From UHGV virus genome UHGV-0070660: a stretch of DNA of 64,000 nt. The stretch is one strand, 5' to 3'. Each line of letters begins with the position of its first letter. The first letter of the stretch is position 1. Origin of the DNA: a virus. The position numbers and the translations under genes were made by a program. Shown here one piece after another: positions 1,026 through 9,728 of this stretch. The notes beneath the pieces were generated by a model, which saw nothing but the letters and a program-made list of their open reading frames with translations, searched no databases and was not told the origin of the DNA.

Positions 1026-1092
1026 GCAACAAATGACCGGTTGAGAAGTTACTTTGCATACCATTACCTCCTGACAACGTAGGAGGGAACTT

Positions 1093-1422
1093 GTGCTTGA
1101 CACACAGGAATTAGCTCCAGTTGCTATTGCGCTCCTGCTTTCAGTAATTGGTGGGATAGGCACGTTCCTGATGGATGTCCGAGACGGTCGCCAGTCTGGC
1201 AATTTGTTGGGATTGGTTACGGAGATCTTTGTTGCAGTGACAGCTGGCGCGGTGGCGTACCTATTGGGGCAACACGAGGGCTGGGAGTTATCAATTACGT
1301 ACTTAATGGTAACGATAGCCAGCAATAACGGTCATGAGGTGATTTCAGGGATGAAACGAGTGAATATCGATAGCATTCTGAATGTTCTTACAAGTTTGGT
1401 GAAAAAGGGAGGCGGGAAATGA
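1093..1422 (+). CDS. lydA: holin LydA
   Basis: 109 aa with two TM segments, GTG start after AGGAGGG RBS; position upstream of lydB/darA operon as in P1. Confidence 0.6.
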   Translation: MLDTQELAPVAIALLLSVIGGIGTFLMDVRDGRQSGNLLGLVTEIFVAVTAGAVAYLLGQHEGWELSITYLMVTIASNNGHEVISGMKRVNIDSILNVLTSLVKKGGGK

Positions 1423-1862
1423 TTGGCTGGGGTGTATGCGTTCTTGCGTTAGCCTTAGCCGATCGCTATTTGCTAAAACGCAAGGACATCACGCATTTAG
1501 AACTTGGTGATGTGGAAATTAAACCGGGTTTCATCCGGGTGCCGTTCAAATACCGGTCTAAATTCCCGTTTTTGCGCGGCGCAACGGTCAGATATTGGAT
1601 CCGCGATGTTCAGAAGCCGACGACAGTGATTGAAGGCGAACAACGTTGTCTGACGTCGGCTGAACAGGGCGAAAACAGTGAATGGTTGTACATACCCACT
1701 GAATATATGGGTAAAGGAGAGCGACTGTGGCATTTCAACGTCATGGTTACGCATGGCGACTCGTTCATTAACCCGTTGTATCGGATTTTCCCTGTTACTC
1801 AGCAAATCCGCAGAAGTTACGTAATAAATCTCGCACAGGATGTGTCAGATGACGAAAAATAA
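1419..1862 (+). CDS. lydB: antiholin LydB
   Basis: 147 aa, 4-nt overlap with lydA; P1 gene order. Confidence 0.55.
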   Translation: MIGWGVCVLALALADRYLLKRKDITHLELGDVEIKPGFIRVPFKYRSKFPFLRGATVRYWIRDVQKPTTVIEGEQRCLTSAEQGENSEWLYIPTEYMGKGERLWHFNVMVTHGDSFINPLYRIFPVTQQIRRSYVINLAQDVSDDEK

Positions 1863-2451
1863 GTATGCAACGGTCGATTTTGACCAGGTTAATGAAAAGG
1901 GGCTGAAATCCCTTATCGCGGCGATCAATAAAACCGGGGTTACGGTAATTGAGGTTGACTCCAGCAACCGCGCAACAACGAAAGATGGCGTTAAAGTTAA
2001 AACCGCAAAGCTGGTTCTTAACGACGGACAAATTCTTGCCATACAGGTAAACGATACTGGCGATATATCGTCTGTGAAACTGAATGGAAAAGCTATTCCT
2101 AACGCTCAGTCGCCGGATATCAAGACGCTTGGTACCGTCATGGGACAGGCGGCTCGCAAAAACTCCGCAAAATTCCAGAAATCACTGATCGCCAAAGCGA
2201 AGCGTGTTGCCAATCCGGTAGACAAGAAACCGGCAGTTAAATCCAACTTTCAGCGCCTGCAAGAAGCAAAACAGCGGAATGCTCAGGTGGTTGCCGCTTA
2301 TAAATCAGCTCAGAACTCGGTGTCTTTCAATCAACAGCAGATCACTGATTTGCGGGCGAAGCTGGATAAGGAGACAGGCCGACTCAATAACGAAAAGGCC
2401 CGAAATGGCGAACTCAAACGCCGTCTTAAGCAACTGAAAGCAGGAAATTAA
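1849..2451 (+). CDS. hdf: Hdf, first gene of darA antirestriction operon
   Basis: about 200 aa (track ORF 203 aa from 1840; ATG at 1849 has better spacing to AGGA); size and position match P1 hdf. Confidence 0.55.
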   Translation: MTKNKYATVDFDQVNEKGLKSLIAAINKTGVTVIEVDSSNRATTKDGVKVKTAKLVLNDGQILAIQVNDTGDISSVKLNGKAIPNAQSPDIKTLGTVMGQAARKNSAKFQKSLIAKAKRVANPVDKKPAVKSNFQRLQEAKQRNAQVVAAYKSAQNSVSFNQQQITDLRAKLDKETGRLNNEKARNGELKRRLKQLKAGN

Positions 2452-2452
2452 C

Positions 2453-4372
2453 ATGGAACAGTTCAATATCAATAAAGGGGTGACGATCAAGCCTGGGCTT
2501 GACGTGCTTCCCCCGCCAGTGACTGATGATGAATATCGCGCATTAATGGCCGGTGAGGACCGCTATCTGATGACGGAATCCAACACCCTGGAGGAAATCG
2601 AGGCTACGTTCTTCTATGACACGCCGATCCACTGGTGTGCTACGGATTTACTGGAGGCGATTAGTTCTACTCGTTTGCAGTTACACCGGACCATGCAGGC
2701 ATTTGTCCGGGCATTGAACCAGAAGCTGAATGGTACCGGAATCTCTGCGGGGAGTGATAAAACGGGGGATGTGGCCCAGAGCGGCGCGCGCGCGATCGGC
2801 GGCGCTGAAATTGGCCGGGCACGTAACGTTAACGGGCTGCCGGTCCTGCCAGCCATTATTCCGCTCAGTGATGGTCAGACTATCAGCATTCTGTTTCATA
2901 GCCCGACAGCGGAAAACCGGATCACCAATAGCGATACGCTGGTTGCTTTCCAGTTCTTACTGAATAAAAAAGACGTTACTCACACCGTTGCTCCGATGAG
3001 TGGACGTGATATGACGCTGGCGCAGGTCACCATGAAACTTGCCAACCTTGCAGAGAAAAACTCGGCAAAATTCCAGCGTGCGCAGAAGAAGAAAAAAGCC
3101 CTTGTTGATGAAATAACCCAACTACAGGCTGACAGTGACCAGAAAGAGGATGCCATGAGCGACCTCGCGGATCAGGTGGCAGCGGTAGAAGGGCAGAAGG
3201 TAGATCTGGAGCAGAAAATTAACGCTGTTGCATCGGAAGCGGATTCTCTTTATGAAGAGAATGAGCGTTTGCAGACGGAGATTGATCAGCTCAATCGCAC
3301 AGGTGGGCGCGATACCATTGATCCAGCGGGGATGACTGGTGGGCACTCGCGCGCGCTGACGGATCGCCTTGCCAGTATCAAAAATCGTATGCATATGAAC
3401 GGGGAAGTGACGCTCAGTAATGGAGCATCAATGAAGCAATTCATTGGGGGCGGCGAAGGGTATATCCAGTTAACCGATCCGGATGGCAGCGTATACATGA
3501 TCAAGGCTAAATCCATACAGGGTGTGGACATGGCAGATGCGATCGGCAAGCTGTTTAAAGCCTATAAAGCGGGTAATGTATCGGAATACCTGGTCCAACC
3601 AGAAGAACATAAACCGGAAAACGTCGAACCTGAACCAGCGGAGGATACCGGTAGCTCTTCGCCTGAACCAGAAGTCTCTGTAGGTGCATATCGATATGCC
3701 CTGCAAATGCGTCCGGCGGCCCCTGGCGCAATACCTGAAGGTAACAAAGCAATTCTGCCGCGCCCTGATGAAGGTGACCCGTATTATGAATATGCACGCT
3801 ACGGCATTGCTACTTACGATACCCCGCTTTCTGATCAGCAAATGAGTGAGTACGACCTGAAGTTATTGCCTCGCGAGGATTCTTTCGACTTCCTGGCGAA
3901 GACACTTACTAATGGTCCGTTTGGCAAATATGCACAAAAAGCTCTGGAGCTGGCCACCAGCTCACCAGACGAGTTCCGCGTAATGCTGAAAACTCAGTTT
4001 CAAAAAACTTTCCCCAATATTGCGTTTCCTGGGGGCGCTGGCACCGAGAAAATGGTGCAGAGCATGATCAATGCATTGCAGGCCGAAGTCGGTGAGATTA
4101 CTCAGCCAGAACCGGCCCCGGCACAGCCTGATGAAACGGTTAGCGAAGCAGATGCAGAGGCTAATAAAGCCATTGAATATCTCAATAACGTGATGGATAT
4201 ACAAAGCACTGACATGGCGGAGATCCGTAACGCCCGGGGCAATGTCCGGGAAGCGATTGCAGCCCTTCAGGCTGCCGGACGTTTTGAGGAAAACGAAGAG
4301 CTGGTTAACGGCGCAGCTCGCCACCTGGCTGATCTGTTGGTAGCAATCCAGAAAGCGGGGGTAGCGGCATGA
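2453..4372 (+). CDS. darA: DarA defence-against-restriction internal head protein
   Basis: 639 aa, immediately follows hdf, 4-nt overlap with next gene; size and order match P1 darA. Confidence 0.75.
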   Translation: MEQFNINKGVTIKPGLDVLPPPVTDDEYRALMAGEDRYLMTESNTLEEIEATFFYDTPIHWCATDLLEAISSTRLQLHRTMQAFVRALNQKLNGTGISAGSDKTGDVAQSGARAIGGAEIGRARNVNGLPVLPAIIPLSDGQTISILFHSPTAENRITNSDTLVAFQFLLNKKDVTHTVAPMSGRDMTLAQVTMKLANLAEKNSAKFQRAQKKKKALVDEITQLQADSDQKEDAMSDLADQVAAVEGQKVDLEQKINAVASEADSLYEENERLQTEIDQLNRTGGRDTIDPAGMTGGHSRALTDRLASIKNRMHMNGEVTLSNGASMKQFIGGGEGYIQLTDPDGSVYMIKAKSIQGVDMADAIGKLFKAYKAGNVSEYLVQPEEHKPENVEPEPAEDTGSSSPEPEVSVGAYRYALQMRPAAPGAIPEGNKAILPRPDEGDPYYEYARYGIATYDTPLSDQQMSEYDLKLLPREDSFDFLAKTLTNGPFGKYAQKALELATSSPDEFRVMLKTQFQKTFPNIAFPGGAGTEKMVQSMINALQAEVGEITQPEPAPAQPDETVSEADAEANKAIEYLNNVMDIQSTDMAEIRNARGNVREAIAALQAAGRFEENEELVNGAARHLADLLVAIQKAGVAA

Positions 4373-4734
4373 CACTATCAGCTATTGAGTTAATGGATCT
4401 CAGCGATAAGTTGGATGCTCTGATGTCCAAAGCGGCTACCGCGAGTGGCATGGAGTTGCTGGATATCAGCGATGAAATTGACCAGATCATGCAACAGATG
4501 GGGTACGGTGTGTCCGGCGGCAGTAGTGGCGAGGAAAAACAACCTTCGGTACATGATGGTGTGCCAAAACTGGTTGCTGATTTCCTGGCTGATAAATTCG
4601 TCGATCAGAGCACCGATGCATTTATCGGTACGTTGCAGGACTTGAGTCAATATGTTGGCACATACATCGATCTGGACCAGGTTAAACAGCACACGGCGGC
4701 ATGGATAGCCGCCAACATTAAAGAGGCAGAGTAA
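4369..4734 (+). CDS. ddrA: DdrA
   Basis: 121 aa, translationally coupled to darA; P1 operon order. Confidence 0.65.
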   Translation: MTLSAIELMDLSDKLDALMSKAATASGMELLDISDEIDQIMQQMGYGVSGGSSGEEKQPSVHDGVPKLVADFLADKFVDQSTDAFIGTLQDLSQYVGTYIDLDQVKQHTAAWIAANIKEAE

Positions 4735-4746
4735 GGCGTAACAGGG

Positions 4747-7734
4747 ATGAGCTTAAGCGATCAGGTGGTAATGGCCACCAGCATAGAAACGCTGATCGAG
4801 CTGCTAAAAAACCTGCCCAATTACGGGCGGGTTTCGTATGTGGTGACAGCGAAGGGAGACGAGGTAAAAACAGCGTTTGATATCGTCGATGCCTCAGCTC
4901 TTTTGGTATCCAATACTCTGGACGGGAAAATTAACCCTGACTATCCCCAGGAACTTCAGCCGCGCGACCGGACCCGCGCATCCAGTCTTCTTCAGGTCAA
5001 CCAGATATCCAAGGATTTGCGTCCTGCCCAGCTTACCGATTCCGGTTTATCCAGCCATGGCGCGCCGATAATTGGTGAGGACAATGCCGTTGAGTCAGGT
5101 AATGGACGGACCATGGGGATCATCAAAGCCTATCAGGACGGCAATGCGGATCGGTATCGTGAGTACCTGATTGATCATGCGACCGAATTCGGCATACGAC
5201 CTGAAAAGGTTGAATCAATGGCGGCTCCGGTACTGGTGCGCCGCCGGTTAACTAAGGTTGACCGCGTTCAGTTTGCCAAGGACTCAAATATTTCTGATCT
5301 TCAGGAAATGGCAGCCAGTGAAAAGGCTTTTGTTGATGCTGACAGCATAACTCCGGCGATGATGGCGCTGTTTAACCCATCAGAAAGCGGAGATCTGCTT
5401 AGCCGCAGTAATGACGCGTTTATTCGCGGATTCATGACGCAAGTTGGTGCCACACAGGCTGCTGGCCTTGTAACGGAAGATGGGCGACCAACACGGCAAC
5501 TTGTAGACCGTATACAAAACGCGATCTTTGCCAAGGCATATAAGGATGCGCGCCTGGTAAGGATGGTTGCAGAAGAACCTGATCCGGATATGCGTAATGT
5601 TCTGACGGCGCTTAATGCGGCAGCCAATGATTTTGTCCAGATGCAGGCTTTATCAGGAGAAGCGCACAAGCAGGCTGTGACAACTATTGTTGATGGTATT
5701 GAGACAGCGGATAGTCTCGATAAAAAGGCGCTGGCGGCATTGAAAGATGCGGTAGACCTGGTAAGGCAATCGAAGGAGTCAGGCCAACATATTATCGATG
5801 TTATTGCTCAGGGGGATATGTTCAGCGAAACAGCCCCGGAAGTGAAAGCGCTCGCGTTGTTCATCGTCGCGAATAACCGTAGCGCGAAGCGTATGGCCAC
5901 CGCCTTTAAATTGATGGCTCAACGTATCAATGATGAGTTACAGCACCAGGGCCAGGCGCTGGGGGATATGTTTGGCGGTGGTGATGTGTCGTTACAGGAT
6001 ATCCTTCGCCAGGTGTCTCAGGAACTGGAAAACGAAGGCATGCAAGGGATATCCGGCGGTCTTTTCGAGTCCGTTTCCGGCGGTAGTTACAACGGTGTTG
6101 CTCCGTATACCAGTTTGCTATTACATCGGGCATCCGGCATCAAAGACATTATTCATCTGATCAGGCTGCTTTCCCGCACAGATCCCCAGGATGAACAGCT
6201 TGTACAAGTGCTTGCGCATTTTGTTCGAATGCCTGTTGCCGACGTGAAAAAATGGTGCCGATTATTCGGTATCAGCAATTCGTTACTTCGCGGCTTGTTA
6301 AATCACGCATCCTCCCTTGGGCGCGATGGCTTTGACGAGATAGCGCAGGCGATAAAAAACGGAGATATGCCACCAGCTATTGACTGGTTTTCCATTCGCC
6401 CAACCAGGGTGAAAGCATTCCTTAGCGCGGCGCATTCGGCATCACCATTGGCAGAAATGGTTCAGAGGTTGTCGCTCATATTCACAGACCATACCGCGTT
6501 GGGTGATCTGACTCTGGACGAGATGAAAGAAGCCTCCATTCAGTGGGCCGATCAACAAAATGAGGTTAACTCTGACTTCTTGCCAGCATTCAGGAAGGCC
6601 GTTAGTAAAGCTGATGATGCCCGTGGAATTCTGAAGGCATTTAAGGCATTGCAAAGTCAGGTTAATAAACATGTCGGTGATATCGATGGGGTAACGGCGG
6701 AAGGCAGGGATATCCTTAAAGAGCACGGCATAACGCCAGAGTTTATTGATGAGATCAGGACGGATATGCAGCGTGAGGTCGTATCGTCCCTGCAAATCGT
6801 AGCCAGAGCGTTGGCGGATGCTAATCCGAAGAGTGCGGCCATTGTTAACCGTGTTATTGGTGATATTGAAGCATCGGAGGGCATGGGGGCGCTGAAACTC
6901 TTCCTTTCGCGAGCGTTTAATCCTAACGGCAATATTCTCCCTGGCATTATTGGTGAGGCTAAAAAGCATGTCAGTGAAGAAGAACTTGAGCAGCTTGACC
7001 AACTACTTAAGCGATTCTCATATAACCCGCAGACACGCTGGCAAATGAATCAGCGAAGTATGGGTTCGGTCCACGAGAAAGTGTTATCTGCCATGAACAG
7101 TGCGATCGCAAACTCATCCGTATCTGAAGAAAAAGCTCTTGAGTGGGCCGACTCTTTTATCACGGAAGAAGTGGAAGAAGCTCGCGCTGGACAGAATGGT
7201 GGGATAGACCTGCGCAAGGAACTTGCTGATATTTATCGCCTGACCGGCGGGAAAATATCGACCTTATCAAAGGTAGTTCACCACCAGGGAAGGGCATATG
7301 CAAATCTAAATGGTGTTGTTGCTGTCAATTTGAACGATGAAAATGCAAGTGCACTGTGGCACGAGCTGGGTCATCATCTTGAGTACAGTAACCCTGGTTT
7401 GTTAGAGAAAGCCCGGTCATTCCTGAAGGCCAATGTTGAAGGGGATAAGCCATCTTTCGTCAATATCGGTGGGCGTGGCAAGCCTGAATGGTGCTTCAGA
7501 TCTCGATTGAGTAATATTTATATGGCGAAGGTATACCCGCCAGCCTCAGTAAGTAACACCGGGAAAATTCGGCAGAAATCACCGACTATTTCCAAAACGT
7601 CAGCAACGGAAGTATTCTCTATGGCTCTTCAGTTGTATCATGACAAAGAGGCCGCTGCCGCATCACTGATGAATGGTGACGGATTGCTGGAACTGTTATT
7701 AGGTGTGGCAAAGGAGCTAAATAATGCAGATTAA
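4747..7734 (+). CDS. ddrB: DdrB large antirestriction/head protein
   Basis: 995 aa; size and order match P1 ddrB. Confidence 0.7.
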   Translation: MSLSDQVVMATSIETLIELLKNLPNYGRVSYVVTAKGDEVKTAFDIVDASALLVSNTLDGKINPDYPQELQPRDRTRASSLLQVNQISKDLRPAQLTDSGLSSHGAPIIGEDNAVESGNGRTMGIIKAYQDGNADRYREYLIDHATEFGIRPEKVESMAAPVLVRRRLTKVDRVQFAKDSNISDLQEMAASEKAFVDADSITPAMMALFNPSESGDLLSRSNDAFIRGFMTQVGATQAAGLVTEDGRPTRQLVDRIQNAIFAKAYKDARLVRMVAEEPDPDMRNVLTALNAAANDFVQMQALSGEAHKQAVTTIVDGIETADSLDKKALAALKDAVDLVRQSKESGQHIIDVIAQGDMFSETAPEVKALALFIVANNRSAKRMATAFKLMAQRINDELQHQGQALGDMFGGGDVSLQDILRQVSQELENEGMQGISGGLFESVSGGSYNGVAPYTSLLLHRASGIKDIIHLIRLLSRTDPQDEQLVQVLAHFVRMPVADVKKWCRLFGISNSLLRGLLNHASSLGRDGFDEIAQAIKNGDMPPAIDWFSIRPTRVKAFLSAAHSASPLAEMVQRLSLIFTDHTALGDLTLDEMKEASIQWADQQNEVNSDFLPAFRKAVSKADDARGILKAFKALQSQVNKHVGDIDGVTAEGRDILKEHGITPEFIDEIRTDMQREVVSSLQIVARALADANPKSAAIVNRVIGDIEASEGMGALKLFLSRAFNPNGNILPGIIGEAKKHVSEEELEQLDQLLKRFSYNPQTRWQMNQRSMGSVHEKVLSAMNSAIANSSVSEEKALEWADSFITEEVEEARAGQNGGIDLRKELADIYRLTGGKISTLSKVVHHQGRAYANLNGVVAVNLNDENASALWHELGHHLEYSNPGLLEKARSFLKANVEGDKPSFVNIGGRGKPEWCFRSRLSNIYMAKVYPPASVSNTGKIRQKSPTISKTSATEVFSMALQLYHDKEAAAASLMNGDGLLELLLGVAKELNNAD

Positions 7735-8035
7735 AATCGCAGCGCCATTAGGTGGAGATGCCATTATCGAATTTGATGATAATGAAGAAGTTTCCGGGCG
7801 TTTAAGCATTATCTCCGGTGACATTACCGAGGACATGATCGCTGAAGCCATAGCTGGGGCAAATCCCAATAGCTATATGGGATTCGTTAACACCCTTGAT
7901 GCTCCCGCAAGTGATGTTCTCCGAACGCTGCATCTTTACGCTGGCTGGTTTGTTGATTGGCCAGCAGTAGATGGTGGCGATGAGGACGACGACGACGATG
8001 ATTTTGGTGATCATGTAGACCAGATCGTATATTGA
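7724..8035 (+). CDS. highly acidic small protein with poly-Asp tract (DNA-mimic-like)
   Basis: 103 aa, about 24 D/E versus 3 K/R, run GDEDDDDDDFGD; overlaps ddrB stop by 11 nt. Confidence 0.5.
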   Translation: MQIKIAAPLGGDAIIEFDDNEEVSGRLSIISGDITEDMIAEAIAGANPNSYMGFVNTLDAPASDVLRTLHLYAGWFVDWPAVDGGDEDDDDDDFGDHVDQIVY

Positions 8036-8037
8036 AG

Positions 8038-8067
8038 AAATCCCGCCAGTCGGCGGGATTTTTTTTA
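8038..8067. terminator. rho-independent terminator (bidirectional)
   Basis: AAATCCCGCC-AGTC-GGCGGGATTT stem-loop followed by T8. Confidence 0.8.
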
Positions 8068-8847
8068 ATCGCTTTCCACTTCTTCCGTGGTGTTTTCTTG
8101 CAGTTCTGTTAATGCAGCACGACATAGGTTCCGGGCATTGGCTATAGCCACACTTTTGACTTCATCCGTCATCGTGCAGGTAATGTACTGATCGAGTTCT
8201 TCAGCGCGGATGATGCTTTTGCCAATCAGAAACTGTATTTGCCAGAGCAGATCGGCATCCATAATCAGAATTTCTGCCGGGCCTTCAGGGCCAGCCGGGA
8301 AGGAAACATAAGACTGTTTGCCCAGCCCGACAACTCGACAACTTGCTTCAAGAATTGCGCGCTTGAGGTCTGACTTTATAACGGAAACAGGTTGATTTTC
8401 ACCAGTGATTACGCCGTTGACATGGAAAGGCATGTAGCTTGAAATACGCTCTACTTTCCACACGCCAGCAAGCGATCCTTCATGCAGCACAATGGGGGTA
8501 ACCGCGAGTTTCATCTCACCATATAACTGCTGGCAGATAGCTGGATTGCTGAATACATCTAAAGGCTCACATTCAAACAGCGGCGCAATCTGCATGAGGT
8601 CCATCATGGTCATCCCTGGGGTACGAGCAGTAATGAATTTGCGCATACCAGTATCCATTGCGCTCCAGATTGCTACACCATGCTTTTTGCTCACTTCTTC
8701 AGTAAAGCCAAGGTGGCACATGATGGTTTTTTCGATAGCCAGATCAGAGATAGAAACTTTTTCGCCAGGTACTCCATCATTATTGATGGTCACTTCGACA
8801 CTCTGACCATTACGCAGGCGGTATTGAATTGCTTTAGTATTTTCCAC
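8065..8847 (-). CDS. hypothetical protein
   Basis: 260-aa ORF, no recognised motif. Confidence 0.4.
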   Translation of the reverse strand: MENTKAIQYRLRNGQSVEVTINNDGVPGEKVSISDLAIEKTIMCHLGFTEEVSKKHGVAIWSAMDTGMRKFITARTPGMTMMDLMQIAPLFECEPLDVFSNPAICQQLYGEMKLAVTPIVLHEGSLAGVWKVERISSYMPFHVNGVITGENQPVSVIKSDLKRAILEASCRVVGLGKQSYVSFPAGPEGPAEILIMDADLLWQIQFLIGKSIIRAEELDQYITCTMTDEVKSVAIANARNLCRAALTELQENTTEEVESD

Positions 8848-8853
8848 GTTAAA

Positions 8854-9531
8854 TCACTCCACTACAAACCAGTCACATGCCAGTAAGTCGCCTACAGAAG
8901 GAACCCACGGAACAACTACACCTTGTGCATTTTTTAAGGCGAAATAAGCACCATACGGAACGAGGTCGCCGGGGAAATATCCCTTAATGGCTTCCATTCG
9001 TGCCGGGTACTGTCCTTCAGGAACCAGCCAGCAGAATTGGTTTTCGCCGTTCCACCCGCGTCGGGCAACTTTCTTGCCATCCTTCAGCCACATCAGCGCG
9101 TCAGAAAAGTCGGCTGCTTCAAGGTCGATTTCTTCTTGTAGAGTAGCGATACCGCCAGCAGAAATAGTTACGTCCCTGGCTGTAATGAATGTCACCCCAT
9201 TGTGACCTTCAATGCTGAGCGATACCCCATTTTCGAAGAAGTCGTTAGTCCGACTAAAGCCTTCTTCAAATGTTTTTTCTGGTGAATAGGACAGAGATCC
9301 GTCCTCATAAGCGACCAGATATCCGCCAATTTCTGGTCGGTGTTTTTGCAAAAATATTTTATCAACATGGACTTTTACCCCTTCTGGCTCAACGACTTCG
9401 ATGTTGCAAAAAAGGACCACATCCATTAGGGCGATAATTTCGATATCTTTGATTTTTGAGGCGCGAACTGTTTTATGGCTTTTGTATTTTGGAAGTGCCG
9501 TAAAAAGCTCTTTCGTTGTCATGTTATTCAT
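8854..9531 (-). CDS. hypothetical protein
   Basis: start chosen at ATG 9531 (MNNMTTKELF) preceded by AGAGGAAAG RBS; track ORF extends to 9699. Confidence 0.45.
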   Translation of the reverse strand: MNNMTTKELFTALPKYKSHKTVRASKIKDIEIIALMDVVLFCNIEVVEPEGVKVHVDKIFLQKHRPEIGGYLVAYEDGSLSYSPEKTFEEGFSRTNDFFENGVSLSIEGHNGVTFITARDVTISAGGIATLQEEIDLEAADFSDALMWLKDGKKVARRGWNGENQFCWLVPEGQYPARMEAIKGYFPGDLVPYGAYFALKNAQGVVVPWVPSVGDLLACDWFVVE

Positions 9532-9728
9532 AGTCTTTCCTCTGCTTAAAACCTGATGTATTGCGCCTTCAGGTGGGTCAGGAATGTTTTCCCACCAGCG
9601 AACGCAATATCTCGGGGTGTTCTTTTCGTGAAAAGCGCGTGCCATTGCCAACTTTGGCGTTTGTTTGCGAGTTCGTGCTTTTGTCGGCGTCTGGACCACC
9701 GCTTTTCTTTCAGTCGTTTTTTACACAT

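Follow-up and report, generated by a model that had tools for sequence, protein, structure and literature searches.

The window analysed here, a stretch of 64,000 nucleotides from the virus genome UHGV-0070660, belongs to a P1-like (Punavirus) phage-plasmid, and our subject is hxr, the small gene at the end of its late darA anti-restriction operon (Table 1). Over bases 7400-8300 the window shows 100% identity to Salmonella phage SJ46 and matches P1, P7, RCS47 and others at 97-99%. According to the annotation of P1 (NC_005856), and with the identical sequence in the window, the late promoter LPdar drives lydA-lydB-hdf-darA-ddrA-ddrB-hxr; a consensus promoter and terminator scanner found no sigma-70-like site on the + strand inside the operon. 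The product, Hxr, has 103 amino acids (MQIKIAAPLGGDAIIEFDDNEEVSGRLSIISGDITEDMIAEAIAGANPNSYMGFVNTLDAPASDVLRTLHLYAGWFVDWPAVDGGDEDDDDDDFGDHVDQIVY), among them 18 aspartates and 6 glutamates (24 acidic residues) against 1 lysine and 2 arginines (3 basic residues), which gives a calculated isoelectric point (pI) of ~4.05 and a charge of ~-21. With a net charge of -0.20 per residue, versus -0.14 for the next, it is the most acidic of the 115 ATG-initiated open reading frames (ORFs) of at least 80 amino acids in the window, and a DEDDDDDD run occupies its residues 86-93.

The hxr gene begins inside ddrB. The two coding sequences share 11 nt (ATGCAGATTAA), and the Shine-Dalgarno sequence of hxr falls within the ddrB codons K-E-L, 7 nt ahead of the hxr ATG. 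An overlap of 1-17 nt with the ddrB stop, together with the internal Shine-Dalgarno sequence, is kept in every informative context and down to ~20-30% protein identity: the start of hxr precedes the ddrB stop by 11-14 nt in Cronobacter phage JK004 (46% identity), and likewise in elements of Rosenbergiella, Klebsiella and Citrobacter and in metagenomic contigs (29-45%). When seven diverged junctions are aligned, AGGA is invariant, being part of AGGAG in six of the seven and of AGGAA in L006, the locus from Rosenbergiella; ATG, GTG or TTG serves as start codon, with its position unchanged. Downstream, a hairpin with 6 G-C pairs and A-U extensions (8040-8059) begins five bases past the hxr stop, and its 3' arm enters a run of eight T (8059-8066); the hairpin folds at -21 kcal/mol (z = -4.5), a stability that 0 of 200 shuffled sequences reached. 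The scanner did not list this terminator, a miss of the tool, and the hairpin was established by folding. It lies between hxr and a convergent gene at 8065-8847 (-), facing the stop of the latter, and is probably bidirectional. The initial annotation had described a 103-amino acid ORF overlapping the ddrB stop by 11 nt, extremely acidic, carrying a DEDDDDDD run, followed directly by a strong terminator and forming the last, translationally coupled cistron of the operon. All of these particulars agree with what we found, and the overlap and ribosome-binding anatomy proved to be conserved; the coupling itself is read from that anatomy. We conclude that hxr is a genuine gene for a protein and closes the late darA operon as its last, coupled cistron.

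DdrB, encoded directly upstream, is a composite protein. Its N-terminal half (~residues 1-440), with the ddrB-ParB domain at residues 36-167, is highly conserved, its middle (~440-810) is variable, and its C-terminal part is a zincin-like metallopeptidase (MPTase) with the motif HELGH at residues 872-876 (nt 7360-7374), an assignment that comes from Iyer et al. 2017 (PMC5512222). DdrB is reported to be processed to a form of ~76 kDa ahead of packaging, with the MPTase proposed as the autoprotease (PMC5512222). We collected DdrB loci, with one genome per species and IMG/VR as the sources, and recorded for each whether it has the peptidase module and whether it has an Hxr-family ORF. Both the MPTase and an Hxr-family ORF overlapping the ddrB stop were present in 28 of 73 loci and both were absent from 44; no locus had Hxr in the absence of the MPTase, and a single locus had the MPTase in the absence of Hxr. 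That lone exception (L161) has a different acidic ORF of 127 amino acids (26 D/E, 6 K/R) at the same overlapping position. This is the strict co-occurrence with a peptidase (28/0/1/44) by which a peptidase-partner pair would be recognized. The hidden Markov model of the superfamily behind these counts includes the diverged partner ORFs, and the counts describe a distribution rather than independent evidence of homology; nor are the 73 loci phylogenetically independent, apart from the switches described below.

The exceptional forms of DdrB follow the same rule. Long DdrB proteins of ~930-1080 amino acids (732 in one lineage) consist of the ParB-like half, the variable middle and the HExxH peptidase, and the 44 loci that lack both features encode mostly a DdrB of 437-460 amino acids, which is the N-terminal half only. 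Where a long DdrB has no HExxH (L103, 700 amino acids; L160, 834 amino acids), Hxr is also missing, and where a DdrB of 732 amino acids has a short middle and has kept the MPTase (L163), Hxr is present. Several of the partner ORFs have diverged beyond direct detection, and the L163 protein bridges them at the level of profile matches, with E 6.6e-10 to the P1 type, E 5e-17 to the Serratia type and E 7e-8 to the Pantoea/Enterobacter type; compared directly with the P1-type profile, the Serratia and Pantoea/Enterobacter types give weak but collinear matches. The tree of DdrB N domains contains at least eight independent switches between long and short forms, and the N domains of the long forms L115, L127 and L158 are 99.3-99.8% identical to those of short forms that have neither MPTase nor Hxr. 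The dimorphism implies recombination at about residue 440-450. Because the switches are at least eight in number and because long and short forms can have near-identical N domains, the C-terminal half of ddrB and hxr are taken to be swapped in and out as one cassette. Divergence within the cassette is also shared: the pairwise identity of Hxr correlates with that of the MPTase domain (r = 0.92, or 0.91 as a partial correlation with the N domain controlled for; permutation p = 2e-4), and its partial correlation with the DdrB N domain is 0.18. Judged from sequence comparison, the MPTase module and hxr have been gained and lost and have diverged together as one unit, independently of the ParB-like half.

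A profile search with the MPTase domain beyond DdrB retrieved only two distant stand-alone relatives. One is a protein of 363 amino acids encoded in a metagenomic Mu-like head module (L107, 4001-5360), between a Mu-type portal gene and a MuF gene. An acidic ORF of 88 amino acids (15 D/E, 5 K/R) follows it after 2 nt and has no detectable homology to Hxr, and this arrangement is either an analogous pairing or a coincidence. The other relative has no acidic ORF downstream.

Homologs of Hxr are few. About 30 clusters were found among 5.8 billion proteins, all of them from P1-like elements of Enterobacterales, with lengths of 95-107 amino acids and the same architecture down to ~20-30% identity; three further matches from the exhaustive profile search (P0021, P0024 and P0026) are spurious repetitive giants and were rejected on inspection. 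At an earlier stage of collection, hxr was found in 91 of 92 loci and was intact in all 91, the remaining locus (L077) stopping inside ddrB. Across 22 haplotypes the ratio of nonsynonymous to synonymous polymorphism is ~0.25 over codons 1-82, which points to purifying selection on hxr, and among close relatives the core is nearly invariant. In the alignment of P1-like homologs (A4), G53, V65, L66, R67, W75, W79 and P80 are invariant, and in the wider superfamily a few glycine and leucine positions and W79-P80 are conserved in at least 80% of members. Single acidic positions are not conserved, but overall acidity is: the family has a mean of 20.7 D/E versus 5.2 K/R, and the net charge is at least -10 in 32 of 32 members. 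The C-terminal end is of (I/V)-(N/Y) type, the penultimate residue being V or I in 27 of the 32 and the last one N, Y, H or F in all 32. The aspartate tract, written in GAY codons (window 7979-8002, codons 86-93), varies from 4 to 8 Asp among near-identical P1-like phages through indels that are in-frame only, and some alleles have the tail replaced by ...DDDDDEEVFSDETVNQLLY; the DEDDDDDD run is limited to the P1/A4-type branch. One P1-like contig (L012, 8001-8555) encodes a protein of 184 amino acids, P0015, that consists of two tandem Hxr domains and overlaps the ddrB stop by 17 nt. A 100-amino acid homolog beside dinI on a 2.7-kb contig (P0010, L003) looked like an orphan, DdrB-independent Hxr, and was rejected as such: it resembles a collapsed recombinant of the tandem-duplicated P0015, which follows ddrB, and the contig is short and rich in insertion sequences.

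An AlphaFold model of Hxr built from 19 diverse homologs has a mean predicted local distance difference test (pLDDT) score of 76, and an earlier model from 5 sequences had identical topology. The model orders the elements of the core (residues 1-82) as beta-beta-beta-alpha-(beta)-alpha-beta, with a pLDDT of 83-90 per 10-residue block except for ~69 at residues 21-30, and in residues 83-103 the block scores fall to 36-52, as expected of a disordered tail. The model has no structural relative in the PDB or BFVD, and sequence searches of Pfam, NCBIfam, PADLOC and the PDB gave no matches, PHROG 2292 alone being matched. Hxr is thus predicted to be an alpha/beta domain of ~80 residues with no recognizable relative, extended by a flexible acidic tail, whose last two residues form a conserved hydrophobic dipeptide.

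The initial annotation supposed that the protein might be an unrecognised anti-defence component. The gene, however, has been recorded several times under different names. Hxr matches PHROG 2292, a family of unknown function, over residues 1-103 of 103 (E 3.2e-60) and is 98-100% identical to the Hxr of P1, SJ46, RCS47 and P7. In the 1998 record AJ000741 ("Bacteriophage P1 darA operon") it is ORFVIII, the last ORF before the annotated terminator; in P1 it is hxr, annotated as "possible repressor; homolog of Xre", a wording that SJ46, RCS47 and several plasmid records copy as "putative repressor protein Hxr"; and in P7 the same gene is called odaA, function unknown. P1 Hxr, ORFVIII and P7 OdaA share position, overlap and terminator with the gene in the window, and window Hxr differs from P1 Hxr by one extra Asp in the D-tract, with no other structural difference. 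In the searchable literature hxr is mentioned in a gene table and in a genome-wide CRISPR interference (CRISPRi) screen (PMC10695390) only, and a 2026 paper on the structures of DarA and Hdf counts six Dar proteins and does not mention Hxr (PMC12810830). The ORF, its place in the operon and the terminator were therefore already known; the cassette relationship with the DdrB peptidase was not found in the accessible literature.

The database label calls for separate comment. The sole support for an Xre-like transcriptional repressor is the original annotation note, which records 28% identity to Xre over ~58 residues. Neither a helix-turn-helix (HTH) nor any other known family was found in Hxr at E <= 10 in Pfam and NCBIfam, and the predicted beta-rich alpha/beta core is not the all-alpha five-helix fold of Xre and HTH_3 repressors. 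We reject the label because the protein has three basic residues, a pI of ~4 and a non-HTH topology; binding of an operator by such a protein would be implausible, and a repressor function is hardly credible.

We favor the view that Hxr is a dedicated partner of the C-terminal MPTase module of DdrB, and put its probability at about 0.5. That it acts specifically as an inhibitor or chaperone of the DdrB peptidase is a narrower proposal, which we advance tentatively. Hxr would be made at about 1:1 with DdrB, late in the producing cell, and would bind the MPTase module, perhaps with its acidic tail and C-terminal end on the substrate or on a basic surface; the acidic tail with its conserved C-terminal end would be the candidate plug or tether. 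As inhibitor or chaperone, Hxr would time the self-processing of DdrB (from 108 to ~76 kDa), after which the N-terminal part of DdrB would be packaged as a Dar head protein and Hxr would stay behind. Hxr would then serve the anti-restriction system as an accessory factor in its assembly, without being an effector of anti-restriction. What we infer is that Hxr binds DdrB, which way it regulates (as inhibitor or as chaperone or activator), what the tail does and what stoichiometry the coupling implies.

The proposal has precedents in the established knowledge of co-operonic metallopeptidase-inhibitor pairs. In protealysin-emfourin, in serralysin-Inh and in the zincin propeptide chaperones and inhibitors, a small protein is co-encoded and co-expressed with a zincin metallopeptidase, as Hxr is, and by analogy a 1:1 complex may be presumed. 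Hxr is unlike them in having no homology to the solved inhibitors, and the peptidase at issue is one domain within a phage polyvalent protein presumed to be self-cleaving. The tail has counterparts of another kind. Bacterial single-stranded DNA-binding protein (SSB; ...DDDIPF) and T7 gp2.5 have, like Hxr, a flexible acidic tail with a conserved hydrophobic end, and such tails dock into partner proteins or DNA-binding clefts. Hxr has no oligonucleotide-binding (OB) fold and no similarity to SSB; the likeness is one of tail design only, a lead.

Several points weigh against a partnership with the peptidase. The phyletic pattern proves a cassette, not contact, because the physical linkage of adjacent DNA alone can give both co-inheritance and correlated divergence. 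The short ddrB genes were inspected within +/-3-4 kb, and an unlinked copy of the MPTase or of hxr may lie elsewhere on those elements. A basic patch that follows HExxH (+5 to +9) is limited to the P1/A4-type clade, the other subfamilies lacking it, and for this reason electrostatic complementarity was dropped as a general argument. The virion proteome of P1, obtained with liquid chromatography coupled to tandem mass spectrometry (LC-MS/MS), lists DdrB, DdrA (13 kDa), DarA, Hdf, Ulx (17 kDa) and DarB but not Hxr (PMC9024508); this absence is weak evidence, for Hxr offers one convenient tryptic peptide only (residues 5-26, IAAPLGGDAIIEFDDNEEVSGR). In the CRISPRi screen hxr, ddrB and the remaining operon are non-essential on a permissive host, and knock-downs of hxr and ddrB have no plating phenotype on a non-restricting host (PMC10695390), a result that is uninformative for the partner model.

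The initial annotation had instead compared Hxr with DNA-mimic anti-restriction proteins such as Ocr and ArdA; Hxr would then imitate the charge of DNA and titrate type I restriction-modification (R-M) enzymes or other DNA-binding defences. Ocr (T7 gp0.3) and ArdA are, like Hxr, small, very acidic (pI ~4) and encoded by mobile elements in an anti-restriction context, and the extreme acidity of the whole Hxr family, the typically small size and the place of the gene within an anti-restriction operon fit the comparison. Hxr nevertheless has no similarity to Ocr, ArdA or any PDB chain: the all-alpha elongated dimer fold of Ocr is not that of the model, and neither a Pfam match to the ArdA domain nor a structural match to its three-domain alpha/beta fold, which has a helix of DNA-like charge, was obtained among PDB chains. 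Mimics have many unrelated folds, with which an orphan fold is compatible. The distribution of charge also weighs against a mimic. The annotation had called for a structure prediction that would reveal a DNA-like charge distribution, and the model places 11 of the 24 acidic residues in the predicted disordered tail of 21 residues rather than on a rigid surface shaped like DNA; the poly-D run belongs to one clade and varies in length, and no acidic residue is among the invariant ones (G, L, W, P, R67), which are hydrophobic or structural. Timing is a further difference. Ocr is the product of the first gene expressed on entry, and ArdA of an early gene of the plasmid leading region; a mimic of the Ocr type would be expected to be made ahead of the incoming DNA or delivered with it. 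Hxr is encoded in a late operon, under LPdar, which is too late for incoming DNA unless the protein is packaged, and it was not detected in virions (PMC9024508), a literature-based point about delivery that is itself weak. Finally, the presence of Hxr is strictly tied to the neighboring DdrB peptidase module, not to anti-restriction genes at large, and a free-standing mimic would have no need of that module. None of these points is decisive, given the many folds of mimics and the weakness of the proteomic absence, but together they leave the analogy with Ocr and ArdA unsupported, and a DNA mimic is unlikely. What stands of the supposed anti-defence component is a likely role inside the Dar system, the components of which are encoded, as Hxr is, in the darA or darB operon.

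Within that system Hxr might itself be delivered cargo, entering the head bound to DdrB or released by its peptidase, and being injected as an effector against a host defence or another host target. The remaining proteins encoded from hdf to ddrB all lie inside the head and are injected, the tight coupling to DdrB would suit piggy-back packaging, and the conserved C-terminal end might serve as a signal for targeting or cleavage. The LC-MS/MS analysis that found the 13-kDa DdrA and the 17-kDa Ulx did not find Hxr in virions, however (PMC9024508), and Hxr tracks the part of DdrB that is predicted to be cleaved off, not the part that is packaged; we regard delivery as rather unlikely. A composite of these ideas, in which Hxr would be a seventh Dar component with a new fold, riding on or released by the DdrB MPTase and delivered as a tail-based mimic of nucleic acid or substrate that blocks a host defence (type I R-M or other), strikes us as unlikely; if it were true, the MPTase and Hxr cassette would be a swappable anti-defence module of P1-like phage-plasmids. 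There is also the model of nuclease-immunity pairs such as barnase-barstar and the colicin DNases with their Im proteins, in which a small acidic partner is often encoded directly downstream. By analogy with these, Hxr, which is small, acidic, directly downstream and coupled, might protect the producing cell by inhibiting the N-terminal ParB-like (nuclease/NTPase-type) domain of DdrB, with the acidic tail filling a nucleic-acid-binding cleft. This is very unlikely: none of the 44 loci with the ParB-like half and no MPTase has Hxr, some of their N domains being >99% identical to Hxr-associated ones, and the divergence of Hxr does not follow that of the N domain (partial r = 0.18).

The partnership with the DdrB peptidase, if it holds, bears on a well-known system. 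The Dar system of P1 is the textbook example of anti-restriction proteins that are injected, and the phage itself is a mainstay of transduction and DNA delivery. For twenty years its darA operon has ended in a gene mislabelled as an Xre-like repressor and absent from the recent accessible Dar literature; the present analysis corrects this annotation, an error repeated in several records of P1-like phages and plasmids. The cassette of Hxr and the DdrB peptidase provides a concrete hypothesis for the control of DdrB processing and packaging and suggests that trans-acting partners may also exist for the self-processing peptidases in the polyvalent proteins of phages and plasmids. It reveals no new kind of system, and a direct anti-defence activity of Hxr is a hypothesis only.

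Table 1. Features of the darA operon and of hxr in the window.
Feature	Position	Strand	Details and basis
LPdar late promoter	1046-1064	+	-22 box AAGTTACTT at 1046-1054, -10 box TACCAT at 1059-1064; P1 annotation NC_005856, window sequence identical
lydA	1093-1422	+	Pfam Phage_holin_3_3
lydB	1419-1862	+	Pfam LydB
hdf	1840-2451	+	Pfam DarA_N
darA	2453-4372	+	Pfam DarA_N and DarA_C
ddrA	4369-4734	+	no Pfam match; name from position and P1 annotation
ddrB, 995 amino acids	4747-7734	+	Pfam ddrB-ParB PF18763, E 3.4e-39
Coupling junction (putative)	7711-7734	+	Shine-Dalgarno AAGGAG 7711-7716, hxr ATG 7724, ddrB stop TAA 7732-7734
hxr (ORFVIII / odaA), 103 amino acids	7724-8035	+	ATG start; PHROG 2292 member
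Hxr globular core, residues 1-82 (predicted)	7724-7969	+	AlphaFold model and A4 alignment
Hxr acidic tail, residues 83-103 (DGGDEDDDDDDFGDHVDQIVY)	7970-8032	+	predicted disordered
Intrinsic terminator	8040-8066		hairpin ATCCCGCC-AGTC-GGCGGGAT and T8 run; folding; terminator of AJ000741 in the same place

Charge varies strongly among the Dar proteins: with a pI of 10.2 (+20), Hdf is very basic, DarA is acidic (pI 4.75, -32), and so is DdrA (pI 4.1, -14), the third most acidic ORF in the window. Upstream of LPdar, a second LydA-like holin ORF of 93 amino acids (744-1025, +; Phage_holin_3_3) corresponds to P1 lydC. Two genes downstream of hxr, in the variable stretch that separates the hxr terminator from ssb, a protein of 281 amino acids (8854-9699, -) has a Pfam match to Tad2-like (Thoeris anti-defence 2; E 2.6e-22) at its C-terminus, and this Tad2-like protein is a second anti-defence candidate adjoining the Dar operon.

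The DNA beyond the hxr terminator differs in almost every lineage. It is a hotspot for cargo and insertions in P1-like elements (window 8036-9728; L001, L005, L006, L009, L012 and L169). In P1 it holds isaB, IS1 and isaA, in P7 and L012 the nmpC porin gene, and in the Rosenbergiella element an MqsA/RelE-type toxin-antitoxin pair; other elements have DUF905 genes, followed further along by one for a ParE toxin, or a defence-like pair of AAA_21/AAA_15 ATPases.

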